Shown one piece after another: positions 1-60,533 of a stretch of 64,000 nt of DNA. A model generated the notes under the pieces. That model worked only from the letters and a program-made list of their open reading frames with translations, did no database searches and had not been told where the DNA came from. The DNA lies in the IMG/VR virus record IMGVR_UViG_3300028027_000002, positions 32,001 through 96,000 of that record; one strand, 5' to 3'. The stretch's first letter is position 1, and each line of letters starts with the position of its first letter. The translations under genes and the position numbers were made by a program. Source of the stretch: a virus.

Positions 1-3000
1 AAAATACAAGTTTTAGAATTGTTATTAAAATTAATTACATAGACCAGGGAAGCAATGCAGATGACTACGAATTTTTAATTAATGGTGTCACCGCTGGTCA
101 GTGGTCAGAAGAATTTAACTCGTCTTCGCTTGGAGTCGATGGATATTTTGTTCCAAACAATATAGCAATAGAACCCACTTACGGAATTAACGCCAATGCT
201 TATGGACTACAAGACAAAAAAGGATATTATCTTATGTCAAATAAAAGTCTTATGGCAAAAAATACTGGAATCCCTTTAGTGTATGGTGCTTCGAACCTTA
301 CAAAACTTTTACCAAATTCAAACTCTTATGGAATGGTACATGAGGTTCGTAGAGATCCTGACGCCTACCTATTTGCTGGTACATCTAATCCAATAGTTAC
401 AGTTACCCGTGGATCAACTTATACTTTTAGCATGAAGACTCCTGGATACCCACTTGCGATACAAACAGTATCTGGAGAGTACAACTCTGCTAGTGAATAT
501 AATAATGGAATAAATAATTCTGGAGCAGATGTTGGAGATATTACTTGGGTTGTTCAGGAAGACTCTCCAGACAACCTTTATTATGTTTGCAAAAATAATC
601 CAGAGATGAGCGGAATAATAAATGTTGTAGATCCAGCCCCGAAACCTTCACTGATTATTCCAGGGCAAGGGTTTTTGGGTGCTGACGGACAATACAAACA
701 ATACACTTTAGAGGCTTGGGTAAGAATTAACTCAGACTCACAAACATTGAAAAGAATTATTGGGCCAATAGGATCAGATGATGGAGTTTATGTTGAAGGC
801 CCATTCTTGATTTTAAAAATAGGATCAAACTTTGGTTCCTATTATGTTGGAGAATGGTATCGCCCCATGCTTATGCATATTCGAGTTGGAGAAAATAATT
901 CTTCTTTGCTTATTAATGGAGAAGAAGTAATATCATTAAGGTATTTAACCGAAGAGTTGAACTTGCCGACCACAATGGATTCCAATAGAAAAAATCAAGA
1001 TTGGATTGGTTTTTATGCATACGAAGATGTATCCCCAATAGAAATTGACTGTGTTGCATTGTATACTTATAATGTTCCTTTGGTCTTGGCTAAGAAAAGA
1101 TTTGTTTATGGACAGGGAGTTGAGTTTCCAGAGGGAATTAATCAAGCCTATAGTGGTTCATCTATTTATATAGATTATCCATTTGCAGAGTATGCAAATA
1201 ATTATTCATACCCCAACATAGGAAACTGGTCTCAAGGAATAGTTGATAATTTAAAAACAGATAGTGGGCTTTTATCTACTCCAGATTATAAGTTGCCAGA
1301 CATTGTTCTGTCAGGGTTTTCTGTAGAAAATCTTTCTTCTAGTTTTTATCCACAAGACGAAGATGGTTTATCTTTTTCTTTTGGAGAACTTCAAGGATCA
1401 TATATGTATTTTGACAACTTAAACTTTTTAAAAGAAAAGGTTAAGTCTTTTTATGGGTCTTTTAAATTTACCTCTGTTCCAGAAACAAAGCAGGTATTGT
1501 TCAGGGCTGAGTCAAAAACATCAACAAACTATTTTGAAATATCTTGTACAGGAACATCAATAGTTTATACCTTAAACTATAATCAAATAGAAGAGGTTCT
1601 GCTAACCTTATCTCCTGTAGCGCTTGAAGAAATATTCTCTGTAGGTGTAGATGTAGAAACTATCTCTAAGTATTTTGGAGGAAATGTTGCATCTTTCTTT
1701 GGTAACTTTAGCAGTCTTGGCTTTTATATTGCAGGAAGTTCAAATCCATCAGAAACATTTTCTGGTAAAGCATACAGGGTGGGTTTTTGTACTTCTAGAA
1801 ATCACAGATACATTAAAGATTTTTTTAATGAAAAGGGTATTGTTATAGAAAATGATAGCGTGTTCTTGGAGTATATTCAAACTCCAGACGTAGAGTACAA
1901 CTCTACAGAAGATTACTTTGGTAATAATCCTGCAGAGTGGGATTCAATTGTCGATTCAGGAATGTTAACTGATGTGTCCGCAAATACCCTTCAATCACAC
2001 ACAGCAAGTTATACCCTGTCTCCAATAATTAATTTTGGATCTTACTCCCTAGACATTGATGTCCAAGGATATTGGGAGGACTATGTCCCACTTACTTATT
2101 TTGCTAAGTATATAACCGATAGTAAAAATAAACCGTACTATGACTTAGATTTTATTCAGTTTAACATAAACTATCCAGCACCATCTGTTTTTATAGAAGA
2201 AGAGCAGTTTGGGTCTTGGACATATGAAGAACTATATGATGAATACAGCGTTCCAGTGCAAAGAGACTATGCTTCATTAGACAATCAACTTTTTAACGGA
2301 TATCTAGATTATACAGACCTAAGAGATAGAGCCTTTAGAAACTATAAGTATGACACATCAAACTCTTTAGTAAAATCTTACATTACATTTCAATATATCA
2401 AGAATGGTGCAAACCTTTCGTCAGAAAATTTTATAAATATTCAAAAACCGTCTAATGATTCTTTTGTTATTCCAGGTGAAGACTGGAGAACAACAAAGTA
2501 TGAGGTTGTAGATAACATGGTTATATATACTCCAAAAGATGTCAGCAATCTAGATATTGCAATAGTTACACATCTTGAGTTTAATGTAAAGGGTATACTA
2601 AAGAACAAGGTTGCTCTTAGAACGCTAGAGTATTGCTCTCAAGCATTTAACAATACATCTACAAATCCTGTTGGTACCAGGTTTGGTCATAATCTTTATC
2701 CTTATAAAAAATCTGGATTCTACTACGACTACAAGTCTGAAAATCCTTTTACAATTTATAAAGGAACTTCTCCGTATTTATATTTAACAAGATATAGCGG
2801 TATAGGAATAAAGGGAGTAATAGATCCAAAGGTTAACAGAGGACTATCTGTTTCAATTAATAAAGAAAAATCAGACAACTTTAAAGTTATGGCTATGCAA
2901 ATGGCAGTTAGATATGACAAAGACTCTTTCCCATATGGATCTGTAGAGGTGTTCGAAATTAAGTCAAAAGACAGACATATAAAGTTTTACATGTCAGCAA

Positions 3001-13131: not shown

Positions 13132-16100
13132 TTGGCTGACGTAAATGCAAATATTGGTATTAATTTTGATACCAGTCAAGCCTTAGCACAATTACGTCAG
13201 TTACAGGCTGGTCTCAGCCGTTTTAATCAAACCCTAACTCAGGGTAATGTTGCAGCAATGAATGCACAAAAGGCTCTTAACAGCCAGTTGATGCAGGCCA
13301 TTAATGCAACTGGAAAATTTGTTGCAACTCAGAAAGATGTAGCCACAAGCACATCTTCTTTTACGCAGGCACTTGAAAAAAATCAATTGTCGATGCGACA
13401 ATACTTTAGATACACCGCTGCTGCAGCAACTCAAAATACAAAAGTATTTAAGGGTATGTTTGCACAAGAGCGTGAGACTTTAACACGTGCTAGTAAAGAT
13501 AGAGTAAAACTCCTACAGTCTCAGTATATCCAGATGCAGGCTGCAAATGGAAATATGATCAAGGTTCTTCAGGTTATTCCAAAGCACCTAAAGATGGTCA
13601 ATGGACAGTATGCAGATTATGCAACACGAATGCAAATGGCTGCACAAAGACAGCAATTTTTAAATAAACTATTAAGTCAAGGCTCAACCCAACTCCTGAA
13701 TTTTGGTAAGAATACTCAGTGGGCAGGTCGCCAGTTAATGGTTGGTTTAACTATTCCTCTTACGATTCTAGGATCAACTGCAGCAAAAACATTTATGGAA
13801 ATGGAGCAGGCAGTAACCAAGTTCTCCAGAGTATATGGAGATATGACAACTGGAAATGATGCGACAAACAGAGCAATTGCAGACATTCAACTACTTGCAA
13901 AAGAATTTACAAAGTATGGCATTGCAGTAAAAGATACTGTAGAGATGGCTGCAACAGCAGCAGCAATGGGTTTAACTGGAGGGGCTTTAAATGCACAAGT
14001 AATTCAAGCAACTAGGCTTGCAGTACTTGGACAGGTAGAACAGCAGCAAGCGCTAGAGACAACAATCTCTCTTACAAATGCTTTTGGAATTGCTTCTGAA
14101 GATCTAGCAAAAAAGATTAACTTTCTTAACGCAGTAGAAAACCAGACTGTTCTTTCTATTGAAGACTTAACAATAGCAGTTCCAAAGGCTGGTCCAGTTA
14201 TTAGGCAACTTGGAGGATCTGTAGAAGACCTAGCATTCTTTATGACTGCAATGAAGGAAGGTGGAATTAACGCATCAGAAGGTGCTAACGCACTTAAGTC
14301 TGGTCTTGCTTCTATGATTAACCCTTCTAAGAAGGCTAGTGAATTTCTTGCTGAACTTGGAATTAATATTACAGGAATTGTTAACGCAAATGCTGGAGAC
14401 TTAAAGGGAACTGTTATAGGATTTGCTAGAGCCTTAGATACACTAGATCCCCTTAACCGTGCCCGTGCAATTGAGCAAATGTTTGGTAAGTTCCAGTTTG
14501 CACGTCTTTCAACACTATTCCAAAATATAACAAAAGATGGAAGTCAGGCTTCTAGAGCACTTGGACTTGCTGGTGCATCAGTTGAAGAGTTAGCAATCTT
14601 GTCTGAACGAGAACTTGGCAAGGTTGAAGATATGACTGGTGCTAAGTTTAAGAAGTCTATGGAAAATCTTAAACTTCAGTTAATCCCAATAGGTAAAGCA
14701 TTTTTGCAAGCAGTAACTCCTATAGTTAATTTTGTTGGAAGAATTCTAGAAAAGTTTAATACTTTAAGTGATGGAACTAAAAAAGTTGTAACAGTTATCA
14801 TTGGAGTTATTGGCGGTCTTGCACCAGTTGCGTTGATGACTTTTGGTGTTCTGATGAACGCAGTTGCAAATGGAATTAAATTATTTGCAAAACTTCGTGG
14901 AGGAATTGCTCAACTTAATGGATCAAACAATGTTCTTGGTGGAGGGTTTGAATATTTAACTAACGAGCAAACTGAAAACGTTGCACAGGCTAATGCTTTA
15001 CACACATCTCATAGTCAACTAATTTCTACATTTAATGTTGAAGCAGCATCAGTTCAAGCATTAGCAGCAGCATATCAAACTGCAGCATCTCAGGCAAGAG
15101 CCCTTGCTCAATCATCTCCAGGATTATTTAACACGGTACCAGGACCAACAGGAGCAGTAGCAGGACTACCAAAGAAGTTTGCAAGAGGTGGAGTTGTTCC
15201 AGGTACAGGAAATAAAGATACTGTGCCAGCAATGCTTACTCCAGGAGAAGTTGTTCTATCAAAAGATATGGTCAAAAATAATCCAGAACTTATTGCTGGA
15301 ATTATGAATGGCAGTGTTAAAAAGTATTCACAATCAACAAACGTAGAGGGTGGTGGATTTTCTGCAGAGGGTCTAGCAATACGAGCAGCACAGATGAAGG
15401 AAGTTTACCTTGGCACTGGTAGCGAAGGGTTTGACAAGAGAGTCAAAGGACTTATAGATGGGGCAATTTCTGTTGGAGAGGCAGGAGTTAAAAGAATAAT
15501 TGAGTTTGCTAGAGCATCTGGAGAAGAGATTGTAGCGTCACAAACAGAGGCTATGAATCGTTGGCGAAGCGCAATGCTTGATGAAGCAGATGCAGCCCTT
15601 GCTGCTGTACCAGATAGATCTGCTTCAAAGGATGAAATAAAAGAGTTTTTAAAGACTAGAGCGCTTGGCTCATCAAATGCTTTTGATACGCTGGATACTC
15701 ATGGAGGACAAAACAAAGCAAAAACTTTTGCACATACAGAACTATCAACGCCAGTTTCTTATGAAGAAGCATTGCGTGTGTCTAGCCAAAGTAAAAGAGT
15801 TTCTGACAGAATTAAGTTAATACAAGGGGGGGCAGACTGGGCCAATAATCTTCCAGATAGCGATCCAAGAAAACCTAAAACTCCAATTACACCAGAGTTT
15901 AGAGCAGTTTCTGCTGCAGGTTTTGAGGGAATTACACAAGAAACAAATAAAGAACTAGACCTAGGCACAGCAAGTGTTACTAAGTTTGTTGATGAATTTA
16001 CTAATTTAGATCCAATTGAAAAGTGGGGGACAAGTCTTAGAAATGCTGGACTTGATATTGATGCTCATGCAGAAGATATCAGGCAACTCGATGCAATTTA

Positions 16101-19100
16101 TCAAGAGCACCTAAGAACTTTTGCTGAGAGTAACACCTCTGGTGTAATGAGTGACTCAGACCTAGCAACAATTAGAGAGCAAGCACTAAATGATCCTAGG
16201 TCAAATCCAACTGTAGTCGCAGCAGCAAGAAGATCTTCTAATAATGTTTCAGGAATAAGATCAAGCGGTGTTGGACAAGAGCAAGAAGATATGATTATGG
16301 AGGCATACGCAAATGGAGAGATCCCTCTTCCAGAAGGTGTAGACTCTGTACCTGAAAAATTATTTCCAAAATCAGGCTCAGCAATTGGTGGAGAAGCAGG
16401 AAGAAAGAAAAGACTTGGAGTATTTGATCAAGAAGTAGAAGATCAGTTAGCCCCACTTGTTGTTGCTACTCCAGAAGCAGAAGCAAATGCTGAAGCAGAA
16501 GGTGAAAAGATTGGTAAAGCGGCGACAAGAGGTGTAAAGAAGGGTGCAAAAACAGAATCTCCTTCTACAGATGGAATTGAAGTTGGTAAGGATATTGCAG
16601 AAGGGGTTGTCATTGGTTTGCAAGAAGGAGAGGCTTCAGTTGCTTCTCAGGGTGCACAACTTGGTTCTTCTGCTGTACCTAAAAAACCAAGAACTGCAGC
16701 AGAAACACAAGCAAGAGTTGATAAGATGGATCTTGACAACAAGGCTTTCTACGATGACCTTGATACTCCAGAATTTCGTGATGAAAGACAAGTTCTTAAG
16801 TCTTTAGATAGACAAAGAAGAAAGCGTGGCGCTACGGGAACCGTAGGCAGTGGTCCAGCAACACCACCAGTCCCAGGACCATCTTCTTTAACTGTTGCCT
16901 CAACAGCAAGAACTGAAGCAGCAGCAGAAGATTTAGCGGTAAGTACAGAGCAGGCTGCAACAGCGCAAGCACAAGTTGTGCAGCAAATTAATGATGAAAG
17001 TAGATCAAGAGTTACTATCAAGGGTAATACTGTTAACATTCAAAAGGCTCGTGAAGAAGCAGACAAGGCTGAAAACGAAGCAGCAATTACAAGAGCACGT
17101 GCCCATGCACTTGAAAGTGAGCAGTTAAAGCAAAAGAAGTCTAATTCACCAACCACCATCACTGATGAACAAGTCCTGGCTGCTAAAGAAAAGGCTAATG
17201 CTGCAGAACTAGAGTATGCAAGAATAAGACAAGAACTAGCAGAGCAAGGAATCACTGCAGCACAACCAGGAGAGATGCAAGAAGTTGCTATACAGGATCC
17301 AGTTAAGACTCCAGCAAAGGTTAAAAAAGCAGAAGATATTATTTCTAACGGAACAGTCGAGCAAGGAGATGGCCTAAGACGAATTGTTGATGGCACAGAG
17401 GACACAGCAGATTCAACTCTGCTAGTTGCAGAACAAACAGATGAGATTGCAACAGTAACTGGAGATATTATTCCAGCACAGACAGATAACTTAGATAATG
17501 TGATAACAACAGCATCACTAAACGATGCAATTGTAAACACTACTGGAGATATTCACGGATCAACAATAGAAACAGCAATGTCTCAAGAAGAAATAGTTGC
17601 ACTACAAGAACAAGAACAGGTTTTAAGAGAGCAATTAAATGCAAATCTTAGACGACAAAGTGATGCTGTTTTATCAGGTAGTGACCTTAGCCCAACAGGT
17701 AAAAGGAGACTAACCGAGCAGGAAGCACTAGACGAAGCATTTGGAAGAGATCCAGGAACAAATGGACCAGACGACTTAGGTCAAAAGGGGTACACAAGAA
17801 ATAAAAAGGGAGAAATATTATTTGATCCAGAAACTGGTCAGCCAACAACTATGGATGAAAAACAAATAACTAAAAAGAAACGTGGTATGCGTAAAGAGAA
17901 GGTTGGAAAGTTTTCTGGTAAAGCAGCAGGTGCTTTGGGTATGGCAACAATGGTTGCTGGAGCAGTTGGTGCACCACCACAAGTTACAGCAGCATTAGGA
18001 ACAGCAGCGACAGTTGCACAATTTGCCCCAATGATTGCTGGAATGGGTCCAGTAGGTCTAGCAGTTACTGCAATCGCAGCAGTTGGTGTTGGTCTGATGG
18101 CATTGAATAAGAGACTTCAAGCGTCCTATGATGCTCAAGCAAAGTTTGTTCGTGAAACATCTGCATCAACAAAGAAGATGGCAGAAATCGGAGCAATCAC
18201 TGGTAAAGTTGGTGCTTCTGAAATTATGGCCAAAAAGAGGGCAACTGGAACCACAAGAGACTATATTGTTAGAGAAAGAGCGGGATCTTCATTTGGAGAC
18301 ACCTTTATGCAATCTGATACTGGTAAAGCAATGTCAAAAACTCTTCAGGCAAATATTACAAAGTCTGGAGCAAAAGAAGCAGCAGAAACATTTGCAACTG
18401 AGATCGCAGCATATGTTCAAGATGGAGTTTTAACTGCAGAGCAGGCTCAGGACATTGCATATCAAATTGGTGTTAACTTTAAAGATACATCTCTTGGAAT
18501 TAAAGTTGATGCAAACCTTTCAGCATTAATCGGACCAAATGGAGAAGATCTTGCAAAAGATCCTATGGTTGTCGGAATGAGGCTTGTACAGTCTGCAGAA
18601 AGAGGCTCTTTAAATTCAGTTAAAAGTATTGATGAAGCAAAAAGCCATGGTCTATCTGGAGCAACAGAAGCAGCAGATCTTGGTGCAAGAGAGGCCGTTG
18701 CTATGCAGATGGCTCAGATGCAAGCAGACGCAGTTGCCAGAAGGTACGATGATGAAATCAGAGCATTAGAAGCACAAGTTGCACAAACTAAAAATAAACA
18801 AGAACAGATAAAACTTGAAGATAAACTAACTGCTCTAAAAGAAAAAGCATATGATGCAGAATCTCAGATGAACAACATAGTTGCTAATCAAACAGATATG
18901 GCAATGCAAAGATTTACTGAAGAAATTCAGCACCAAAGTGTAGTTTGGGATGCTGTAACACTTGGACTGTATAAACTTTGGGGAGCAGGAAACCAAAGAG
19001 AAGCAGCATATACTCGAGCACTTAATGGGGCAATAACTGATAAGTATGCAAATACAGAACAAGCAACTGAAGCAGCAACAGTTTCGGACAGACTTGCAAA

Positions 19101-22100
19101 GTTTGCTGATGGTAAGACTCTTGGTTTTGGTACAAATAATTATGAAGACGCAGGGTTTGCAGGGGGCAAAGAGGCTCAGCAGTTTGAAGTAAAGATGAAA
19201 CTATTGATGGCAAATGGAACGCTTACTCCAAACCAAACAACAGCGATGCTTGACTTATTTGAAGGTAACCTTCCAAGACTTGAAACAGTGTTAGATATTG
19301 GAACAAGAATGCACGGAGCATCTGCAACAGCAGAAATTATAATGCTATTGACAAACTTCCAAGATAAAGAGTATGCACAAAAAATAGCCTTAGAAGTAAC
19401 TACACAAGACAATGAGTCATTTAAAAAGTTGTCAGATATTTTTGGACTTGCAGCCCAACTTGATGGTAAAGAAATTAACATGGAAGTTGTTGTTACAGAA
19501 GTGGGTGGGGTTGCTGGATTAGAATACTATATTGAAAGACTTGACGAACTTGAAACAAAAATAAAGGGACTTAAAGGTAAGTCTATAACACAAGAAGATG
19601 TTGCTCAATTTACAAAAGATACAAATGTAAAGGTAGACGACGGTTTCCTTGACTATATAAATACAGAGTTTAAAGGTGATGGAAAGAAGCAAGCAGATGC
19701 AATAAGAGCCTATACCCTTGTATACAAGCAAATTATGTCAATGGACTATGCAAGTGAAGAAGCAAGAGACTACTTTAGATCACAAGCAGGTCAGATGGCA
19801 GTTGATAAATTAAATGAACTTAGAAAAGCAGGAAATGCTCCAGCAGATATTGAGACATATATAAAGAACCAAACAGAAATTGAGATTGATGCTTTAATTA
19901 CAAAAGTAAAGGTCGATCCAACAGCAGTTACAGGTGACAAAGTTGAGACTTATCTAGGAACCAAACCAGTAGTTGATAGCAATACTGGACCTGGCGGTAA
20001 TAAAGATGGAGGAACAAAGAAAGAAGATCCTCTAGCATTCTTAGAATCTCTTGCTATGCGTATCAAGATGGTTAGAGATCAGGCATTTAACGCAAAGAAG
20101 CCAATTGAGTCAATGCTTGCAGCATTCAATAGTCCTGCTGCAAAGAAAAATGTTGCAAACATGTTTACACTATTTGACGGGTTACAACAAAAACTTATTG
20201 CTCTAAAGGTTCCAGAAGAATTTAGAGACTATATTGCAGGATTAGATGCCCAGCAACTTGAGGATTTGAAAAAGGCTGACCTTGACAAAAAGAAAAAGGG
20301 ACAGCAAGGAATATTCCTTTATGGTGAAAAGAAAGACAAAGATGGAAAAACTGTAAAGGATAAAAAGGGTAATGTTGTTTATGATACTTCAAGAATTGTT
20401 GGAATATCAAAAGAAGGTAAGGCTATTATGGCAGCCTATAACGAAGCCCCACTGGACAAATTTAATATTGCACAGCGCAAGGTAGTAACTGACACTGACA
20501 TGCAGTTTAAGGCTTTTAATAAATTAAAGGCAGCAGGAATAGATACAGGAGTTGCTCTAGAAACTGTCTCAGACTCAGTTCTTGCAGCATCCATTGCTTC
20601 AAGTGCTCTACAGGGAACTGACCTAAAAATATTCATTGATGATTTAAAGAAATCTGCATCTGCAGCAGAAAAGGCTGCTGTCATGGCAGACTTACTAAAA
20701 AAGAACGCAGACTTTAAATTTAAGAACGAGACATTCCCTAAACTTGCTTCTTCATTAAAGATTGCAGGGCTTTCTGCTGAAAACATTGCAACAGTACTTC
20801 AAGATCCAGCATTAGCAAAGCAGTTAATGGCAGACCTAGAAGATGGAAAGATAGACTCTAAGGCAATTGCTGATTACTTAAATAGTATAAAAGAAGAAAA
20901 AATTGTTGAGATTCGTGGTAAGTTTAATGCTGGAGATTTTGCTGCAGCAGCAGCACCAGGCATGGAACTTGTTAACAAGATGTTTGCAACGCAGGAAGCA
21001 TTGATTAGAACTGGTATTGATGGTAGATCTAAAGCCATGGTTGCAAGACTTAAGGATTTAAAGGAAGTTAACGAAAACCTACAACTTGATATACAAAAAA
21101 TAACTTTTAATCTAATACGACCACTAGAAAAGGCTATTGAGAAGGCAACTAGAGATCTTGAAATAAAGGTTACTCGGAAGATCGAGGCTTATCAAGAAGA
21201 AGTAAGTGACCTTCAAAGAATTATTGAAATTGCTTTTGAAAGACCAATAGCAGCGATCAATGCAGAAAATACAATCATGTCTAATGACATGGAAATAATG
21301 AACAAGGCTGCAGAAGAAATCAACAAGAGATATGACGAACAGGCAGAAGCGTTGTCTAAGGTTGCAGCAATTAATGCTGAAATTGTTGCCCAAGAAAAGG
21401 AACAACTCGATCTAGCAGACGCACTGTCTAAGGGTGATATAGCAGCAGCAGCAAGAGCAGTTCAGTCTATACGAGCATCACAGGCTGCAAAAAATGCAGA
21501 CAATGCGTCAAAGGCTTTAGAGCAATCACGTAAAAATGAAGTTGATAGTCTTAGAGGTCGTGACTCTGGCCTAAGCAAAGACGAGATTACTGAAAGACAA
21601 TATCAGAATGCTCAGGCAATTTATGATCTAGAAAACAGAGCGACAACAGATGTCAACGGCAAGTTGATGACAAGGCTTCAAATACTAGATGATATTCAAA
21701 AGAAGAATGATGAAATTTATAAACTTGAAGAAGATCGTGAGGCAAGACAACTTGCTATCCGTGCACTTGAAGATAAGATTTACGATATAAATGAACAACA
21801 AATTAAGCCAAAGCAAGATATAATTGACGCCAATGCTCTTCAGATTGCTATAGATGAAGATGCACTACAAGACCTTGTAGACAACATTACAGTACTTGGA
21901 AAAACAAGAGATGTTTGGGATGGCATATCTGCAAAGATTGAAGCGTCATCTCTTGCTGGACAAGACTTTGATGGATTAATGGGTGGAATGCTTGCGTCTG
22001 TTGATCAAATCGATAAGGGCTGGAAGAGCATAGAAAACACACTAAGTAAGTATTCTTCAGAATCCGCTGCAGCAGAAGGCTCAGCAATGGATGCAATGAG

Positions 22101-23607
22101 AGATAGACTCAACGAAGAACTTGCCTTAAATGAAAAAATTGCAAAAGAAAGAGCAGATGCTGCAAAGGCTGCACAACTTGCAGCAGAACAAAAATACGCA
22201 ACTGACAAGGCTGCATACGATGCAGAAGTTGCTAACATCAAAAAACTAAGGGGTTATGGGGTTCCAAGTTTTATTACGGACTCAATGGAGGCAGCACTAA
22301 AGGCACCAGTTGCTCCAGGCCCAACTTCAGCAGCCGATAATCCGAATGTAGACTACAACGACCCTACAAAAAATGCTGCAAATGATATTTATAAAACTGG
22401 ATTATTTGATGGTAAAACAACAAGTAGTGCTGGAGGAAAATCTAGTACTACTGGTGGTGGAACTACTGGTGGTGGAACTACTGGTGGTGGAACAACTGGT
22501 GGTGGAACAACTGGTGGAACAACTGACCCAGTTCCAAGTCCTGGGCAAAAGACTCCTCCAGGAGGGGTAAAGAAAAATACTAATGCTGATACTGCTGCAG
22601 GTACAGCAATGACCCAAGAAGAAAAAGCAATTTTGCAAATGGCATCCACAAAACGAATGGATCAACTAAAAAATATAGCAATTAACAGACCAAAGTTTGC
22701 TCTTAGCAACATGAAAATAAAGTATGGAACTAATACTAAAGATAGTGATATATACAAAAACTTAACTGGAGAAAAAAGAGTATCCTTTGACAAAGACTAC
22801 GCAGCGTATGAGGCTCTTAAAGAAGAGGCCACTAAATGGACAACAACCGATGATGGAGTTACTACTAGTTATGCTTATTCTTCTGCAGCAGGTGAGGCTG
22901 AAGAAGCAAGACTTCTTAAACTTTTACCCGATTGGGTGCAAAAAGCGGTAGAGTTAGTAGACAAAAGAACTGATCTAGCGAATACAGATTTTGCAAAGTT
23001 TAAAGAAGTAAGAGATAGATACTACGATGCAAAAGATGAAATGAAGATTGGGCCCAACTGGTCATTTAAAGACATTGAAGCATACGAACCATTTATGAAG
23101 AAGTATGGAAGTCTATATAGAGAGTATAGAGCAATCCATTCAAAACTACAAGATACAAACAACGCCACGGACTTGGCCAGAGAGAACCTACTTAAGGCTG
23201 GATACAATGACCAAAACTTAGGCTGGGCTTTTAAGAGTGCTACAAGTGCTTACCGATTTACTAATCAAACACCAAAAGGCTTTGTGCCATCTACTAGTTT
23301 TAATTATTATTCTAAGGGTGGGTCTGTTGCTTCTAGATTTGCACAAAGTGGATTAAGTATAGGAACAGACACGGTTCCAGCCATGCTTACTCCTGGTGAG
23401 TTTGTCATGAGTAAGTTTGCTGTACAATCACATGGCACAGAAAAAATGAAGGCAATAAATAATGGCTCATCAGTAGGTGACGCAGTGTATAATTATAGTA
23501 TTAGCGTAAATGTTAAGTCTGAGTCAAACCCAGATGAGATAGCAAGAACAGTCATTGCCCAGATAAAGAGCGTTGACGCACAGAAGATTAGAGGAGTTAG
23601 AATATAA
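13132..23607 (+). CDS. Tape measure protein (3491 aa)
   Basis: TTG start with SD GAGGTG; TP901-type core (GINASEGANALKS), Ala/Gln-rich helices, hydrophobic segments, two DTVPAMLTPGE motifs. Confidence 0.93.
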   Translation: MADVNANIGINFDTSQALAQLRQLQAGLSRFNQTLTQGNVAAMNAQKALNSQLMQAINATGKFVATQKDVATSTSSFTQALEKNQLSMRQYFRYTAAAATQNTKVFKGMFAQERETLTRASKDRVKLLQSQYIQMQAANGNMIKVLQVIPKHLKMVNGQYADYATRMQMAAQRQQFLNKLLSQGSTQLLNFGKNTQWAGRQLMVGLTIPLTILGSTAAKTFMEMEQAVTKFSRVYGDMTTGNDATNRAIADIQLLAKEFTKYGIAVKDTVEMAATAAAMGLTGGALNAQVIQATRLAVLGQVEQQQALETTISLTNAFGIASEDLAKKINFLNAVENQTVLSIEDLTIAVPKAGPVIRQLGGSVEDLAFFMTAMKEGGINASEGANALKSGLASMINPSKKASEFLAELGINITGIVNANAGDLKGTVIGFARALDTLDPLNRARAIEQMFGKFQFARLSTLFQNITKDGSQASRALGLAGASVEELAILSERELGKVEDMTGAKFKKSMENLKLQLIPIGKAFLQAVTPIVNFVGRILEKFNTLSDGTKKVVTVIIGVIGGLAPVALMTFGVLMNAVANGIKLFAKLRGGIAQLNGSNNVLGGGFEYLTNEQTENVAQANALHTSHSQLISTFNVEAASVQALAAAYQTAASQARALAQSSPGLFNTVPGPTGAVAGLPKKFARGGVVPGTGNKDTVPAMLTPGEVVLSKDMVKNNPELIAGIMNGSVKKYSQSTNVEGGGFSAEGLAIRAAQMKEVYLGTGSEGFDKRVKGLIDGAISVGEAGVKRIIEFARASGEEIVASQTEAMNRWRSAMLDEADAALAAVPDRSASKDEIKEFLKTRALGSSNAFDTLDTHGGQNKAKTFAHTELSTPVSYEEALRVSSQSKRVSDRIKLIQGGADWANNLPDSDPRKPKTPITPEFRAVSAAGFEGITQETNKELDLGTASVTKFVDEFTNLDPIEKWGTSLRNAGLDIDAHAEDIRQLDAIYQEHLRTFAESNTSGVMSDSDLATIREQALNDPRSNPTVVAAARRSSNNVSGIRSSGVGQEQEDMIMEAYANGEIPLPEGVDSVPEKLFPKSGSAIGGEAGRKKRLGVFDQEVEDQLAPLVVATPEAEANAEAEGEKIGKAATRGVKKGAKTESPSTDGIEVGKDIAEGVVIGLQEGEASVASQGAQLGSSAVPKKPRTAAETQARVDKMDLDNKAFYDDLDTPEFRDERQVLKSLDRQRRKRGATGTVGSGPATPPVPGPSSLTVASTARTEAAAEDLAVSTEQAATAQAQVVQQINDESRSRVTIKGNTVNIQKAREEADKAENEAAITRARAHALESEQLKQKKSNSPTTITDEQVLAAKEKANAAELEYARIRQELAEQGITAAQPGEMQEVAIQDPVKTPAKVKKAEDIISNGTVEQGDGLRRIVDGTEDTADSTLLVAEQTDEIATVTGDIIPAQTDNLDNVITTASLNDAIVNTTGDIHGSTIETAMSQEEIVALQEQEQVLREQLNANLRRQSDAVLSGSDLSPTGKRRLTEQEALDEAFGRDPGTNGPDDLGQKGYTRNKKGEILFDPETGQPTTMDEKQITKKKRGMRKEKVGKFSGKAAGALGMATMVAGAVGAPPQVTAALGTAATVAQFAPMIAGMGPVGLAVTAIAAVGVGLMALNKRLQASYDAQAKFVRETSASTKKMAEIGAITGKVGASEIMAKKRATGTTRDYIVRERAGSSFGDTFMQSDTGKAMSKTLQANITKSGAKEAAETFATEIAAYVQDGVLTAEQAQDIAYQIGVNFKDTSLGIKVDANLSALIGPNGEDLAKDPMVVGMRLVQSAERGSLNSVKSIDEAKSHGLSGATEAADLGAREAVAMQMAQMQADAVARRYDDEIRALEAQVAQTKNKQEQIKLEDKLTALKEKAYDAESQMNNIVANQTDMAMQRFTEEIQHQSVVWDAVTLGLYKLWGAGNQREAAYTRALNGAITDKYANTEQATEAATVSDRLAKFADGKTLGFGTNNYEDAGFAGGKEAQQFEVKMKLLMANGTLTPNQTTAMLDLFEGNLPRLETVLDIGTRMHGASATAEIIMLLTNFQDKEYAQKIALEVTTQDNESFKKLSDIFGLAAQLDGKEINMEVVVTEVGGVAGLEYYIERLDELETKIKGLKGKSITQEDVAQFTKDTNVKVDDGFLDYINTEFKGDGKKQADAIRAYTLVYKQIMSMDYASEEARDYFRSQAGQMAVDKLNELRKAGNAPADIETYIKNQTEIEIDALITKVKVDPTAVTGDKVETYLGTKPVVDSNTGPGGNKDGGTKKEDPLAFLESLAMRIKMVRDQAFNAKKPIESMLAAFNSPAAKKNVANMFTLFDGLQQKLIALKVPEEFRDYIAGLDAQQLEDLKKADLDKKKKGQQGIFLYGEKKDKDGKTVKDKKGNVVYDTSRIVGISKEGKAIMAAYNEAPLDKFNIAQRKVVTDTDMQFKAFNKLKAAGIDTGVALETVSDSVLAASIASSALQGTDLKIFIDDLKKSASAAEKAAVMADLLKKNADFKFKNETFPKLASSLKIAGLSAENIATVLQDPALAKQLMADLEDGKIDSKAIADYLNSIKEEKIVEIRGKFNAGDFAAAAAPGMELVNKMFATQEALIRTGIDGRSKAMVARLKDLKEVNENLQLDIQKITFNLIRPLEKAIEKATRDLEIKVTRKIEAYQEEVSDLQRIIEIAFERPIAAINAENTIMSNDMEIMNKAAEEINKRYDEQAEALSKVAAINAEIVAQEKEQLDLADALSKGDIAAAARAVQSIRASQAAKNADNASKALEQSRKNEVDSLRGRDSGLSKDEITERQYQNAQAIYDLENRATTDVNGKLMTRLQILDDIQKKNDEIYKLEEDREARQLAIRALEDKIYDINEQQIKPKQDIIDANALQIAIDEDALQDLVDNITVLGKTRDVWDGISAKIEASSLAGQDFDGLMGGMLASVDQIDKGWKSIENTLSKYSSESAAAEGSAMDAMRDRLNEELALNEKIAKERADAAKAAQLAAEQKYATDKAAYDAEVANIKKLRGYGVPSFITDSMEAALKAPVAPGPTSAADNPNVDYNDPTKNAANDIYKTGLFDGKTTSSAGGKSSTTGGGTTGGGTTGGGTTGGGTTGGTTDPVPSPGQKTPPGGVKKNTNADTAAGTAMTQEEKAILQMASTKRMDQLKNIAINRPKFALSNMKIKYGTNTKDSDIYKNLTGEKRVSFDKDYAAYEALKEEATKWTTTDDGVTTSYAYSSAAGEAEEARLLKLLPDWVQKAVELVDKRTDLANTDFAKFKEVRDRYYDAKDEMKIGPNWSFKDIEAYEPFMKKYGSLYREYRAIHSKLQDTNNATDLARENLLKAGYNDQNLGWAFKSATSAYRFTNQTPKGFVPSTSFNYYSKGGSVASRFAQSGLSIGTDTVPAMLTPGEFVMSKFAVQSHGTEKMKAINNGSSVGDAVYNYSISVNVKSESNPDEIARTVIAQIKSVDAQKIRGVRI
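22447..22524 (+). repeat. 15-bp tandem repeat (ACWACTGGTGGTGGA, ~5 copies) encoding TTGGG
   Basis: Directly visible tandem array inside the tape measure gene. Confidence 0.9.
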
Positions 23608-50949: not shown

Positions 50950-51810
50950 ATGAAAAAAGTACTACTAGCACTACTATCAGTTGCAATTGCATTTACAGCA
51001 ATCGCACCAGCACAAGCACAAGATCAAAAGGTTTTAGCAATCATTGATTCAGCAGTCGATTACAAGAAGATTCCTTCAGTAATCTATGAAGCATGTTTCA
51101 CAACTAATCTTTCATGTCCAAATAAAACAAACTTTATGGAAGGCAAGGGGTCTGCAAATTCAAATGTATGGCCTTCGTCAATTATTAATTCTATTTATCA
51201 TGGTCACAACATGACTCAGGCTGCACTTACAGTAGACCCAAGCATCAAGATCGTCTTTGTTAGAGTTGCCAATGTTACAAGTTCTGGTAATATTCTTCAA
51301 GATACTAAGTCTTTGCGATCAGCAATTGACTGGGTATCAAAGAACGCTGAAAAATATAGCATCGATGCAGTTTCAGTTAGTTTATCCTCTATATCTAAAA
51401 ACAATCTAACCGAATGCACAACAGACTCTGTTGTTTTGACAGCAGTGTCTTATCTTAATTCAAAAAATATTCCAACATTTGCAGCAACTGGAAATGATGG
51501 CTCATTGAATGTAGTTGGATATCCGTCATGTGTCTCTGGTGTAATTGGAGTTGGAGCATCATGGTTTGACACTACAACAAAGTCTCACATTTTTGCAAAG
51601 TCTACAAATCGTGGTCCTGGTCTTGACATTCTTGGTGTAGCAGAAGCACTAGTTGTAAGATACCACGGAACAACAGTAGAGACATCTGGAACTTCTGGAG
51701 CAACTGTTCTTACGGCAGCAAAGTATGTTTCTAAAAATACATACAAAACCTTTGGAGAATATGTATCATCTCTTCCAAAGATGCTATCATATCCATATAA
51801 CGGCAAGTAG
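50950..51810 (+). CDS. Secreted subtilisin-like (S8) serine protease
   Basis: Signal peptide; triad motifs IIDS, HG.NM, ATGN, SGTS.AT. Confidence 0.85.
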   Translation: MKKVLLALLSVAIAFTAIAPAQAQDQKVLAIIDSAVDYKKIPSVIYEACFTTNLSCPNKTNFMEGKGSANSNVWPSSIINSIYHGHNMTQAALTVDPSIKIVFVRVANVTSSGNILQDTKSLRSAIDWVSKNAEKYSIDAVSVSLSSISKNNLTECTTDSVVLTAVSYLNSKNIPTFAATGNDGSLNVVGYPSCVSGVIGVGASWFDTTTKSHIFAKSTNRGPGLDILGVAEALVVRYHGTTVETSGTSGATVLTAAKYVSKNTYKTFGEYVSSLPKMLSYPYNGK

Positions 51811-51815
51811 TTTTA

Positions 51816-51842
51816 AGTCCTAGGCATGACTAAAACTGCCTA
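51816..51842 (+). ncRNA. Small H-type pseudoknot motif, copy 1
   Basis: AGTC-C-TAGGCA-T-GACT-AAAAC-TGCCTA; covaries with the copy at 60024-60055. Confidence 0.6.
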
Positions 51843-51846
51843 ACCT

Positions 51847-51919
51847 TGCCCTATAACTCAGTTGGTAGAGTGCCGAACTGTTAATTCGGATGTCCCTGGA
51901 TCGAGGCCAGGTGGGGCAG
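51847..51919 (+). tRNA. tRNA-Asn(GUU)
   Basis: Cloverleaf: TGCCCTA/TGGGGCA acceptor, CCGAA-CTGTTAA-TTCGG anticodon arm; atypical T loop ATCGAGG; no CCA. Confidence 0.88.
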
Positions 51920-51960
51920 CGTGATATAATTGTATTGTCATACCTACAAGGAGGAATATC

Positions 51961-52599
51961 ATGGCAGCAAAAGGTAGTTTAGAAGCAATCATTGAGGTTG
52001 CAAAGAAGGAAGTGGGAACAATTGAAGGCCCTAAAGATAACGAAACAAAGTACGGTGCATGGATCAAGGTTAATTTTCAGCCATGGTGCCAGTCCTTCGT
52101 TTCTTGGTGTGCATTTACTTCGGGAGTAAAGTCATTCCCTAAGTCTGCATCAACAGTTGCAGCAGCAGACTGGTTCAAGAAGGCTGAGCGTTGGTCAGAT
52201 GCTCGCAACGATGATCCACAAGCAGGAGATTGGATCTATTTTGATTTCCCAGAAGATGGTGTAAATCGTATTTCACATGTTGGTCTTTGCATTAAGAACA
52301 ACGGAGATGGAACAATCCAAGTTATTGAGGGAAATACTTCAGGAACTGCAAAGGGAGATCAGCGCAATGGCGGAATGTGCGTAGAAAAAACTCGTGCATA
52401 TGTAAAGAATAACAAGAAGAAGTTAGTTAACGCTGTAGTTGGTTGGGGCCGTCCAGTCTATACTGGTGAAGAGAATGCTCCACTACTAAACAAGGTAGTT
52501 GCATCTGCAACAACTGCAGCACCAGTTAAGAAAGCAGCACCAAAGCCAGCAGCAAAGAAGTCTTCTGGTGGCGGAGGAAAGGGCAGTGTGGCACTATAA
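51961..52599 (+). CDS. CHAP-domain cell-wall hydrolase (endolysin)
   Basis: QPWCQSFVSW, SHVG, IEGNT; SD AAGGAGG; Lys/Ala-rich tail. Confidence 0.85.
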   Translation: MAAKGSLEAIIEVAKKEVGTIEGPKDNETKYGAWIKVNFQPWCQSFVSWCAFTSGVKSFPKSASTVAAADWFKKAERWSDARNDDPQAGDWIYFDFPEDGVNRISHVGLCIKNNGDGTIQVIEGNTSGTAKGDQRNGGMCVEKTRAYVKNNKKKLVNAVVGWGRPVYTGEENAPLLNKVVASATTAAPVKKAAPKPAAKKSSGGGGKGSVAL

Positions 52600-58828: not shown

Positions 58829-59619
58829 ATTTTTTTTGGTTTGAAAGATCAAATTCTTATGATATAAAAGAAATATCTTTAGAGTTAGAAAAATCTGGTT
58901 TTTATGGGGTTCTTTTGGTGTACTCGTTTTATAGTGATGATCAATTTGTAAAAATAGCAAATGCAATAGATGTAAATCAAAAAATAAAATATATGGTTGC
59001 CATAAGACCTCATGTTATATCTCCACAATATTTGTCTATGATAAACAATTCATTTCAAAAAATATCAAAAGACAGAATCATAATTAATTTTATAACTGGT
59101 TGGATATCGGAATATGACAAACAGGTGGGTGGAATTCAAGGTGAAGTAAATGACCTTTCTTCAAACCTAGAAAGATCTGAGAACTTGGTAGAATATTTAA
59201 AGGTTTTAAAAAATACCGCTGGAGAAACACCAAACTTTTATGTGTCTGTTACTAATCCTATTTTACTGGAAAAGGTTTCTGGCGATAAAGTTATTATTCC
59301 ATACCAGTCATACAAGCAAAACAATTTTAGCACTAATGATTCAAGCAAAATAATGATCTATATTTCTCCAGTAATAAGAAAAACAAGAGAAGAACTTTTA
59401 CCACTGATAGAAAAAAATACAAGAAGTGATGTTCAGCACTTTACCTTTGATGAGTTTGAAGCATTATTAAACGAATTAAAAAATAAAAATATAAACAATA
59501 TTTTAATGGACGAAGCAGAACCCAACGAATATATAGAAAAAAAGCACACGCTAAGTTTTGTTAGTTATTTTACTAACAAAGAAACAAATATCCTAGGAGG
59601 AAAAAATGACACACCATAA
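58825..59619 (+). CDS. Luciferase-like (SsuD-related) monooxygenase homolog, copy 2
   Basis: LEKSGFYGVL, IKYMVAIRP..ISPQY, RIIINFITG; paralog of 53330..54172. Confidence 0.65.
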   Translation: MNFFWFERSNSYDIKEISLELEKSGFYGVLLVYSFYSDDQFVKIANAIDVNQKIKYMVAIRPHVISPQYLSMINNSFQKISKDRIIINFITGWISEYDKQVGGIQGEVNDLSSNLERSENLVEYLKVLKNTAGETPNFYVSVTNPILLEKVSGDKVIIPYQSYKQNNFSTNDSSKIMIYISPVIRKTREELLPLIEKNTRSDVQHFTFDEFEALLNELKNKNINNILMDEAEPNEYIEKKHTLSFVSYFTNKETNILGGKNDTP

Positions 59620-59923
59620 CGAAACAAACTCACAGATCAAGGCAGCACTTGCATCATACGGACGCTCAGTCCTTGGTGCAGCAACAGCGATGTATGCATC
59701 TGGAGTTACAGATCCGCAGACACTAGCATACTCACTACTTGGAGCACTTGTGCCCGTAGTATTAAGAGCAGCCAACCCTAATGACAAGGCATTTGGAAAG
59801 ATGCCTTCAGTAGATGAGGTAGACGCAGCAGTTAAGTCTGCAAAGGTAGTAAAGAAGACCGCTAAGAAGGCTCCTGCAAAGAAGTCATCAGGCGGAGGCA
59901 AGACAACCAATCAAGTAAAATAA
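59606..59923 (+). CDS. Putative holin
   Basis: Two hydrophobic helices, NPND.AFG motif, basic C-tail; SD AGGAGG. Confidence 0.55.
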   Translation: MTHHNETNSQIKAALASYGRSVLGAATAMYASGVTDPQTLAYSLLGALVPVVLRAANPNDKAFGKMPSVDEVDAAVKSAKVVKKTAKKAPAKKSSGGGKTTNQVK

Positions 59924-59941
59924 TATAGTATAATTTATACT

Positions 59942-60057
59942 ATTCCGATCTAAGACTTTAAAAGGTTTTACAACGGATGCTCTTATGAGAAGAGAGTTAG
60001 CAGGAGTCGAACCTTCGTGGCTAATAGACCTGAGCAGTCGTCTATAAACTGCTCATT
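59942..60057 (+). ncRNA. Candidate structured ncRNA (three hairpins + 3' pseudoknot, copy 2)
   Basis: TATAAT 59929-59934; stems TCCG/CGGA, CTCTT/AAGAG, TTAGC/GCTAA; pseudoknot 60024-60055. Confidence 0.55.
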
Positions 60058-60076
60058 TCTTATGCTATAATATTAA

Positions 60077-60131
60077 TACCTGCCCAAATGGGGGGTAAAT
60101 TAACTTATTCGCTTGAAAGGGGAATAACATG
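60077..60131 (+). promoter_or_regulatory. ROSE-like RNA thermometer 5' UTR of hsp20
   Basis: Promoter TGCTATAAT 60063-60071; two hairpins, the second TTATTCGCTT/AAGGGGAATAA occluding the SD with a UCGCU motif. Confidence 0.55.
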
Positions 60132-60533
60132 GTAAAAACAGCACTGGATCTTTTTAATGATCCATTTTTCAATACCTTCTCAAATTTTCAGAAGGTAACA
60201 ACAACAACAAACTATCCACCTTATAACCAAATCAAACTAAATGATACAGAGTATATTCTTTCATTTGCCTTGGCTGGGTTCTCTAAGGATGATGTCTCAG
60301 TGTCGCTAGACAATCGCAAACTTACAATCAAGGGCGAGAAGCAGGATGCTGAGTTACCAGAGGGTGCGGAGTATCTACATAAGGGCATTGCTGCTCGTAA
60401 GTTTACTGATATCTTTACCCTTCCTGAGTTTGTTGAGGTAGTTGGGGCTGAGTTTAAGGATGGTATCTTAGATATCAGACTTGAAAAGCAGATCCCAGAA
60501 GACAAACTGCCAAAAACAATCGCAATTAAGTAG
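60129..60533 (+). CDS. Small heat shock protein (Hsp20/IbpA-like)
   Basis: YPPYN, ALAGFSK, YLHKGIAARKF, DGIL. Confidence 0.93.
   Translation: MVKTALDLFNDPFFNTFSNFQKVTTTTNYPPYNQIKLNDTEYILSFALAGFSKDDVSVSLDNRKLTIKGEKQDAELPEGAEYLHKGIAARKFTDIFTLPEFVEVVGAEFKDGILDIRLEKQIPEDKLPKTIAIK

Follow-up and report, generated by a model that had tools for sequence, protein, structure and literature searches.

The window, the whole 64,000-nt stretch analyzed here, spans bases 32001-96000 of one 111,870-bp viral contig and carries two copies of a small intergenic element whose fold as a classical H-type RNA pseudoknot is supported by covariation in each of its two helices. The earlier note had read the two copies as a recurrent pseudoknot; our analysis confirmed this reading and extended it to a family that is distributed across phages of many host phyla. 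The genomic context suggests that the element acts as a host-independent RNA roadblock at gene ends, stabilizing the upstream RNA against 3' exonucleases, a role to which we assign a probability of about 45%. The element comprises 27-32 bases with the consensus NNNC-C-UGAGCA-W-GNNN-(N)AAAC-UGCUCA, that is, S1 (3-6 bp, free sequence), a C (L1), S2a (UGAGCA or UAGGCA), 1 nt, S1', an A-rich loop (L3) ending in AAAC, and S2b. The two copies and their adjoining features in the window are as follows.

50950-51810, plus strand: ORF of 286 aa, upstream of copy 1
51816-51842, plus strand: pseudoknot copy 1, AGTC-C-TAGGCA-T-GACT-AAAAC-TGCCTA (S1 51816-51819/51828-51831; L1 C51820; S2 51821-51826/51837-51842, of the UAGGCA/UGCCUA type; junction T51827; L3 51832-51836, AAAAC)
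51847-51920, plus strand: tRNA-Asn(GTT), starting 4 nt 3' of copy 1
51922-51930, plus strand: extended -10-like box TGATATAAT, a putative promoter between tRNA-Asn and the endolysin gene
51961-52599: endolysin gene, 3' of tRNA-Asn and the TGATATAAT box
59929-60055, plus strand: candidate ncRNA of about 115 nt, with a -10 box (TATAAT) at 59929-59934 and a predicted start near 59941
60024-60055, plus strand: pseudoknot copy 2, ATAGAC-C-TGAGCA-GTC-GTCTAT-AAAC-TGCTCA (S1 60024-60029/60040-60045; L1 C60030; S2 60031-60036/60050-60055; junction 60037-60039, 3 nt; L3 60046-60049, AAAC)
60063-60071, plus strand: extended -10-like box TGCTATAAT, a putative promoter 8 nt 3' of copy 2 and 5' of hsp20
60129-60533: hsp20, 3' of copy 2

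Both copies were read from the window with the positions and sequences that had been described for them, and covariance model R1 scored copy 1 at 34 bits (E = 2e-7) and copy 2 at 33.8 bits (E = 2.2e-7). The ORF upstream of copy 1, earlier labeled 'protease', was without a PHROG or Pfam match; its TAG stop lies 5 nt from S1 and 9 nt from the L1 C, a gap that is both the minimum and the mode across the family (among the matches listed). Copy 2 lies in a 205-nt spacer that separates ORF 59606-59923 from the phage hsp20 gene at 60129, and nine other contigs carry copies identical or near-identical to it. The proposal that the element is intergenic at likely RNA 3' ends was borne out at both sites, copy 1 being located 4 nt before tRNA-Asn and copy 2 at the end of the candidate ncRNA. 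No canonical terminator was found at the two window copies.

A generic scan for the bare 4+5-bp H-type topology returned approximately 60 distinct sites in the window. Since such a topology is common by chance, the case rests on the shared architecture and sequence of the copies and on their homologs. Among the listed matches, the four S1 pairs of 125 S2-anchored instances were Watson-Crick in 115, 116, 114, and 88 cases, respectively; pair 1 was mainly C-G with compensated switches to G-C or U-A, pair 2 was UA (66), AU (39), or CG (10), and pair 3 was GC (50), AU (23), CG (22), or UA (19). When S2a was UAGGCA and S1 was present, S2b was UGCCUA 86 times, UGCCCA nine times, and never UGCUCA, the otherwise dominant S2b (all among the matches listed). 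A sequence-free scan over 3.1 Mb of collected loci gave 288 unique copies, including nine further fully compensated S2 variants as compared with 0-3 matches in shuffled controls. In alignment A2, whose 150 rows were selected for pairing, 97.4% of the paired cells were complementary versus 76.7% in shuffles and 22-36% with slid partners, double-change cells numbered 335 versus 111 in shuffles, and all four S1 pairs and four of the six S2 pairs covaried. Because A2 was chosen for pairing, the unbiased tests are the S2-anchored S1 counts and the UAGGCA/UGCCUA swap. The covariation that had been noted in both stems was recovered as compensated changes in S1 and S2 among the homologs.

There was effectively no variation in the two outermost S2 pairs, the L1 C, or the AAAC of loop 3, and S2a positions G4, C5, and A6 were conserved at 95%, 89%, and 100%, respectively (among the matches listed). 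The suggestion that C, GCA, and AAACTGC are invariant held family-wide with small qualifications: G4 and C5 vary slightly, and the L1 C and AAAC were preset by the search patterns, with no real variants lacking them in the flanks. L1 was a single C in 239 of 308 scan matches, the rest nearly all resembling opposite-strand mirror readings that were not separated singly, and L3 was 5-6 nt in 235 of the 308. According to the groove-crossing rule of Pleij, a 1-nt L1 spans an S2 of 6-7 bp, and an L3 of at least 3-4 nt spans an S1 of 4-5 bp; the loop lengths of the element fit these rules. A G at +1 or +2 after the motif was present in 1-2% of the matches listed. Since a G at these positions would extend S2 onto C-C and undo S1, both helices appear to be jointly selected. 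Nested folding yielded the S2 hairpin alone, at -5.6 to -9.8 kcal/mol. The counts of G-U versus A-C in S1 were indecisive for the strand, which is fixed by the asymmetric loops and the gene orientation.

The ends of the contig share an identical 99-bp overlap (1-99 and 111772-111870), a sign either that the genome is complete and was assembled as a circle or that it has a short terminal repeat. This genome was found in runs from subsurface and lake metagenomes and encodes a 3491-aa tape measure protein, a large DNA polymerase, an endolysin, and six tRNAs. The tape measure match of the 3491-aa ORF (window 13132-23607) was confined to the first ~650 residues, and the unusual length of the ORF implies a very long tail or added domains. 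No RNA polymerase was detected among the ten large ORFs scanned; on this result and on the tape measure and gene content, the phage seems siphovirus-like and dependent on the host polymerase. We rejected an N4-type hairpin promoter for a virion RNA polymerase as an identity for the element, given that the 3491-aa ORF is a tape measure gene and that the ten large ORFs were without an RNA polymerase.

A search of the whole genome with model R1, the kind of search that had been suggested, identified six copies with E values from 1e-9 to 1e-5, the next match having an E value of 0.17; hundreds of covarying homologs were found elsewhere by pattern scans. The four copies outside the window are as follows.

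Genome 106582-106610, minus strand: pseudoknot copy (R1)
Genome 105352-105380, minus strand: pseudoknot copy (R1)
Genome 107121-107149, minus strand: pseudoknot copy (R1), copy 6 below
Genome 296-324, minus strand: pseudoknot copy (R1)

Of the six genome copies, four are located among the small genes of a minus-strand block at 105-112 kb and 0.3 kb. Two of these minus-strand copies outside the window were also detected, as perfect copies, by a structure-aware scan, one of them 4 nt before tRNA-Asp(GTC). All six genome copies are followed by a promoter-like box within about 15-100 nt, either directly or past a tRNA. In three RNA-labeled runs, relatives of the region were present as assembled contigs with 85-95% identity, a form that shows neither RNA ends nor strand.

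Two further observations were made in the minus-strand block. Copy 6 (107121-107149; region L122 11090-11330, genome 107090-107330) is located ~150 nt past the nearest ORF stop; a GATAAT box and a hairpin rich in GC lie before it, and a perfect TTGACA-17-TACAAT promoter lies 13 nt after it. This region may specify a second short RNA with the knot at its end. A second repeated motif follows three of the minus-strand copies (genome 105200-105270, 106530-106580, and 250-295, corresponding to L122 9200-9270, L122 10530-10580, and L120 250-295, respectively). A T-run comes first, then a GACGTC palindrome with G/C on either side, and 40-60 nt farther on a TTTACGATAGG-Y-TGA-like box; the motif may be an early promoter or operator of this phage.

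The candidate ncRNA at 59929-60055 had no Rfam match and was conserved in at least nine other viral contigs. An alignment of nine contigs (A1) contained three covarying helices, with pseudoknot copy 2 as the 3' terminus of the RNA and with compensatory changes in a CUCCC/GGGAG hairpin, the loop of which contains an invariant UGA, and in a GUUAGC/GCUAAU stem. In two relatives (L106 and L109), a TTGACT -35 box begins 2 nt 3' of the pseudoknot, leaving no space for a separate terminator.

The family is large. The pattern C-TGAGCA-N(4-14)-AAAC-TGCTCA matched at least 119 loci in IMG/VR with at least 136 matches; among those listed, the gap was exactly 7 nt in 86 of 136, an adjacent S1 of at least 3 bp was present in 116 of 136, and the remaining matches mostly had a longer loop 3. 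The pattern of the copy 1 type (C-TAGGCA ... AAAC-TGCYYA) matched at least 118 loci in IMG/VR. A stricter pattern applied to one genome per prokaryotic species matched at least 119 loci, against ~9 chance matches calculated, and S1 was present in 108 of the 119 listed. Carriers among the matches listed included Saccharibacteria, Lactobacillaceae, Nocardia, Bacteroidota, Clostridia, Cyanobacteria, several Proteobacteria, and Methanobrevibacter MAGs, and copies were seen in prophage-like regions of assemblies from Lactobacillaceae, Saccharibacteria, Bacteroidota, Actinomycetota, Cyanobacteria, Proteobacteria, and others. Where the neighbors in prokaryotic assemblies were checked, they were phage genes (encoding an SPP1 gp7-like minor head protein, Ant, and DUF932), and the carrier phages originated from freshwater, marine, soil, and gut habitats.

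No Rfam family corresponds to the element. A cmscan search against Rfam 15, proposed previously as a check, found no family at the gathering threshold other than five tRNAs (the models searched include preQ1-I/II/III, SAM-II, pistol, and tRNA-like RNAs), and at E <= 10 the elements at both sites were overlapped only by weak unrelated matches. We found no literature description of a phage pseudoknot of this kind, and the csRNA catalogue (PMC10690425) may hold it unnamed. A BLAST search of both loci against GenBank phages matched the tRNA alone, and no copy was detected in T4, T5, SPP1, Syn9, S-PM2, P-SSM2, HTVC008M, or crAss001. The sole cultured-phage carrier that we located, via its tRNA-Asp, is Synechococcus phage S-CRM01, a cyanomyovirus in which the element could be tested in culture and for which a search gave no transcript data. 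Three pseudoknot-like copies lie in the large tRNA region of S-CRM01 (NC_015569, 129325-132431; L377): one at locus positions 299-326, separated by 2 nt from tRNA-Tyr upstream and by 27 nt from a start codon downstream; one at ~1013-1040, after an unannotated tRNA-like T-arm; and one at ~1496-1526, which is 4 nt before tRNA-Asp and has one S2 mismatch.

The position of the element relative to genes was characterized among the matches listed, to which all of the counts in this paragraph apply. The element is intergenic and in the same orientation as the genes, with one of 158 listed copies inside a same-strand ORF. Its start is at least ~5 nt past the stop codon upstream, the shortest distance being also the commonest, and the distance from the end of the stop to the L1 C has a floor of 9 nt (21 listed copies at 9 nt, 14 at 10 nt, and none below); the same floor was observed for the listed matches of the prokaryotic-genome set and of the pooled viral-plus-prokaryotic set. 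In long spacers, the upstream stop was no more than 20 nt away from 37 of 86 listed copies, whereas the next start was no more than 35 nt away from 8 of the 86, and 26 listed copies were at convergent gene ends versus 7 at divergent starts. The distance from the knot to the next start codon had a mode at 20-30 nt. Close placement after stops is partly expected of any intergenic element in a compact genome. The stop codons themselves were biased: TAA and TAG were favored immediately before the knot, and TGA accounted for 9 of 81 listed stops (11%) as compared with 692 of 2093 control ORF ends (33%; Fisher p ~1e-5), a control set that includes some spurious ORFs.

A tRNA gene started within 20 nt downstream of 27 copies and ended within 20 nt upstream of one (among the matches listed). 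These 27 tRNAs were specific for Asp (15), Asn (3), Arg (3), Trp (2), and Leu, Gln, Ser, and Thr (1 each), and the spacing from the knot to the tRNA was 3-13 nt. The upstream genes were diverse, the largest group being DUF932 (17 of 115 listed), and no shared neighboring protein family was found. A module of DUF932 (phrog_1221), knot, and tRNA-Asp recurs in many unrelated contigs and is present here at genome 105273-106506 on the minus strand; in the first locus set, the knot was located no more than 12 nt upstream of 14 of the 16 tRNA-Asp genes listed.

Downstream of the motif, the first 8 nt were G-poor and A/U-rich, a T-run of at least 4 occurred within 14 nt in 26 of 131 copies, and a hairpin plus T-run occurred within 70 nt in 8 of 286 (all among the matches listed). 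A downstream hairpin was not apparent, the mean MFE of positions +1 to +30 being -2.23 kcal/mol versus -2.18 kcal/mol for shuffles (n = 287 listed). CCA directly followed the motif in 17 of 131 listed copies versus ~1.6 expected by our own arithmetic, and many of these listed cases represent one homologous DUF932-knot-tRNA-Asp module. Two general rules for the 3' flank were considered and rejected among the matches listed: a promoter after the knot (2.8% of 284 copies versus 2.5% of control gene ends) and a canonical terminator after the knot, which was rare (8 of 286).

We propose a protein-independent roadblock as the most economical reading of these results. In the predicted structure, the short and variable S1 is closed by C-G, the single C would bridge the deep groove of the 6-bp S2, and, with one junction nucleotide, the A-rich AAAC loop would be placed in the S1 minor groove through a putative tertiary contact. 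Such an anatomy would resemble that of small triplex pseudoknots that resist mechanical unwinding. The knot would belong to the end of the upstream transcript segment, set as near to the stop codon as a terminating ribosome permits without unwinding it. With a 4-bp S1, the 9-nt floor would put the first pair at ~+12 from the P site, just beyond the position at which the ribosomal helicase is said to open mRNA in work by Takyar and colleagues from 2005, so that a terminating ribosome would leave the knot folded. The RNA would then be cut by an endonuclease in the spacer or by RNase P at the tRNA 5' end; at tRNA-Asn, RNase P cleavage would yield an upstream RNA whose 3' end lies 4 nt beyond copy 1. 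Exonucleases that degrade RNA in the 3'-to-5' direction would halt at the knot, and the upstream coding RNA or ncRNA would be stabilized. An analogy is offered by T7, in which RNase III sites leave 3' hairpins that stabilize the upstream mRNAs.

A role at gene ends and RNA 3' ends is favored by the anchoring to stop codons, the 27:1 ratio before versus after tRNAs, the ncRNA end, and the 26:7 ratio of convergent ends to divergent starts. With respect to the functions put forward in the earlier note, the context argues for an exonuclease block or a processing signal at RNA 3' ends, whereas a ligand aptamer appears unsupported in view of the 3' UTR or intercistronic position, the lack of a match to any riboswitch model in the search, and the 1-nt loops with no obvious pocket. 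Given its covariation and breadth, the element would be among the most widespread uncatalogued cis-RNAs of phages, and in uncultured phage genomes it can serve as a practical marker of where genes and transcripts end. Should it prove to block exonucleases or helicases, phages would set the lifetimes of mRNAs and sRNAs independently of the host, and the element would be a portable, very small stabilizer for synthetic biology.

The main rival would give the block the opposite polarity. As in coremin, the knot would arrest machinery that moves 5' to 3' (RNase J, translocating Rho, or ribosomes past the stop) and shield or insulate the downstream RNA. The Watson-Crick-style coremin model has its architecture in common with the element (PMC10520033, PMC10321173). 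The S-CRM01 copy that lies between tRNA-Tyr (2 nt away) and a start codon (27 nt away) fits such a block and counts against a 3' block, since it would cap a 5' end; the 20-30-nt mode of the distance to the next start (among the matches listed) points in the same direction. However, knots in long spacers follow the upstream stop (37 versus 8 of the 86 listed), convergent ends with nothing downstream to protect outnumber divergent starts (26 versus 7 listed), copies precede rather than follow tRNAs (27:1 among those listed), and the second hairpin (hp2) that coremin needs is absent. Many carrier assemblies are labeled as taxa for which we know of no 5' exonuclease, a point tempered by the unreliable binning of phage contigs into MAGs. 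These positional statistics disfavor a 5' block, and we consider it unlikely. Sequence identity, as opposed to shape alone, might instead be read by a conserved protein or by the translation apparatus, as a binding site for a regulator of termination, recycling, or re-initiation or for an RNA-binding protein of the phage or host. An ordinary GC hairpin is enough to stop PNPase and RNase II; a 3' block by itself thus leaves the strict conservation of S2, L1, and L3 unaccounted for, and a specific partner might be its cause. Near-invariance is seen in the terminal S2 pairs, the L1 C, and AAAC although helices are free to vary, the stop distance peaks at the limit of the ribosome footprint, and TGA is scarce before the element (9 of 81 versus 692 of 2093; both among the matches listed); a specific partner, possibly tied to termination at stop codons, would explain the sequence invariance and the stop bias better. 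Against this stand the want of a common neighbor family (DUF932 at most, in 17 of 115 listed) and a spread over host phyla that argues against one dedicated partner unless it is universal, while coupling to termination is difficult to reconcile with copies that precede tRNAs, that end ncRNAs, or that lie as much as hundreds of nucleotides from any stop. We regard a specific partner as rather improbable.

Transcription termination or pausing is a third kind of function that the position would allow, with the knot replacing the hairpin and U-tract. The promoter-like boxes after all six genome copies with no canonical terminator visible, the -35 box 2 nt past the knot in relatives, and the G-poor, A/U-rich 8 nt after the listed motifs would suit such a signal. 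Yet a T-run of at least 4 within 14 nt is found in only 26 of the 131 listed copies, promoters are about as frequent after listed knots as after control gene ends (2.8% versus 2.5%), many copies within apparent operons are ~20 nt away from the cistron that follows, and we know of no pseudoknot terminator for bacterial RNA polymerase, which together make this role a poor prospect. A coaxial stack of S1 and S2 could also mimic a tRNA acceptor arm in the manner of TYMV and punctuate polycistronic phage RNA for RNase P, RNase Z, or the CCA-adding enzyme. The two stems would form a helix of ~10-11 bp with a free 3' strand, tRNA adjacency is repeated and extends to copies inside the S-CRM01 tRNA region, and CCA after the motif exceeds expectation (17 of 131 listed versus ~1.6). 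Nevertheless, CCA is missing in the large majority, many CCA cases stem from the single DUF932-knot-tRNA-Asp module, the Rfam tRNA and tRNA-like models gave no match, and a cut on the 5' side would sever L1 and destroy the knot, so we hold mimicry to be very improbable. Finally, we give almost no credence to a signal in the DNA (an operator or an ssDNA hairpin for replication or packaging) or to chance similarity. The near-palindrome of S2 (TGAGCA/TGCTCA) could serve as a dimer-binding site, but S1 covaries with only part of it falling within the palindrome spacer, L1 and L3 lack symmetry, the orientation is always that of the genes, and the 9-nt floor after stops points to RNA and the ribosome; hundreds of covarying copies exclude chance.

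The preferred reading, a gene-end roadblock that protects upstream RNA, can be compared with known small pseudoknots and gene-end signals. Like the element, the preQ1-I riboswitch (RF00522) is a ~34-nt pseudoknot with an A-rich 3' tail; however, its loop 2 has 5-6 nt including a ligand-pairing C, whereas loop 2 of the element has 1 nt, and it is located in 5' leaders rather than after genes. A preQ1 riboswitch was considered because the element adjoins tRNA-Asn and tRNA-Asp, which are Q-modified; it was rejected on the absence of a cmscan match at E <= 10, on the wrong loops, and on copies that precede Arg, Leu, Ser, Gln, Trp, and Thr tRNAs. An intrinsic terminator consists of a GC-rich hairpin with an immediate U-tract, a combination that the element does not provide (T-run, 26 of 131; hairpin plus T-run, 8 of 286; both among the matches listed). 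The autoregulatory pseudoknot of T-even gene 32 is present as a single copy in the gene 32 5' leader and nucleates gp32 binding. It and the element are both phage-encoded H-type pseudoknots with a 1-nt loop 1 over an S2 of 6-7 bp, but they have no common sequence, and the element is multi-copy, follows genes, and is missing from T4. The gene 32 pseudoknot is mentioned in PMC10690425.

The closest resemblances are to viral pseudoknots of eukaryotes. The element shares with the luteovirus frameshifting knots (BWYV and PEMV-1) its compactness, a C in loop 1, a single junction nucleotide (extruded in luteoviruses), and an A-rich loop 3 ending in AAAC. These luteovirus knots are compact H-type structures of 27-28 nt. 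In this type, loop 3 forms minor-groove triples and the knot lies 5-7 nt downstream of the A-site codon, a placement comparable with that of the element (see also PMC10321173, Fig. 1). The stem lengths are inverted, S2 having 3 bp in BWYV and 6 bp in the element, and the window copies are flanked by a stop, tRNA, or promoter in place of the slippery heptamer and overlapping downstream frame of frameshift or readthrough sites: copy 1 has no X-XXY-YYZ before it and a tRNA 4 nt after it, and copy 2 is 100 nt from any ORF. Coremin, or xrRNA-C, is a motif of plant and fungal RNA viruses that stops Xrn1 and scanning ribosomes as a mechanical block independent of sequence-specific proteins (Dilweg et al. 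2019, PMC6546385; 2023, PMC10520033; PMC10321173). Both coremin and the element are tiny, usually located in 3' UTRs or intergenic regions, and built from a short 5' hairpin (3-4 bp) topped by C-G, a single-pyrimidine L1, a loop that pairs with the spacer, and an A-rich AAAC. The coremin loop 1 is YGAD or YGNNAD, a consensus from which the C-UGAGCA-W of the element departs with U rather than G at the second position. Coremin has a conserved 10-nt spacer (GUUAAACUAC-like), of which AAAC-U alone is common to the element, the remainder in the element being the 3' strand of S2. The S2 of coremin has 3 bp or is non-canonical, in contrast to six Watson-Crick pairs, and coremin depends on hp2, a hairpin of at least 4 bp that follows immediately, whereas no such hairpin follows the element. 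Moreover, coremin acts in eukaryotic RNA viruses and blocks the 5'-to-3' exonuclease Xrn1, whereas the context of the element points to the opposite polarity, the protection of upstream RNA. The element resembles coremin xrRNA-C and the BWYV-type knots and is a member of neither nor of any named family, as judged from the coremin loop and hp2, the window copies without frameshift signals, and the Rfam search.

In MALAT1 and MEN-beta, a triple helix stands beside the tRNA-like mascRNA; RNase P generates the 3' end, and the structure protects it from 3' exonucleases. Like MALAT1, the element would set a compact, A-rich tertiary structure directly before a tRNA or tRNA-like fold, but MALAT1 forms another fold, a U-A-U triple-helix clamp, in a eukaryotic nuclear RNA, and coupling of the element to RNase P is suggested by the 3-13-nt spacing. 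If the roadblock is real, the xrRNA concept would extend from the RNA viruses of eukaryotes to DNA phages. More tentatively, tailed phages of nearly all host phyla may share a 27-nt, protein-free 'RNA end-cap', a minimal triplex that is paired with tRNA genes so that RNase P makes a protected 3' end; such an end-cap would be the prokaryotic-virus counterpart of xrRNAs and of MALAT1-mascRNA, possibly linked to coremin by evolution or convergence.
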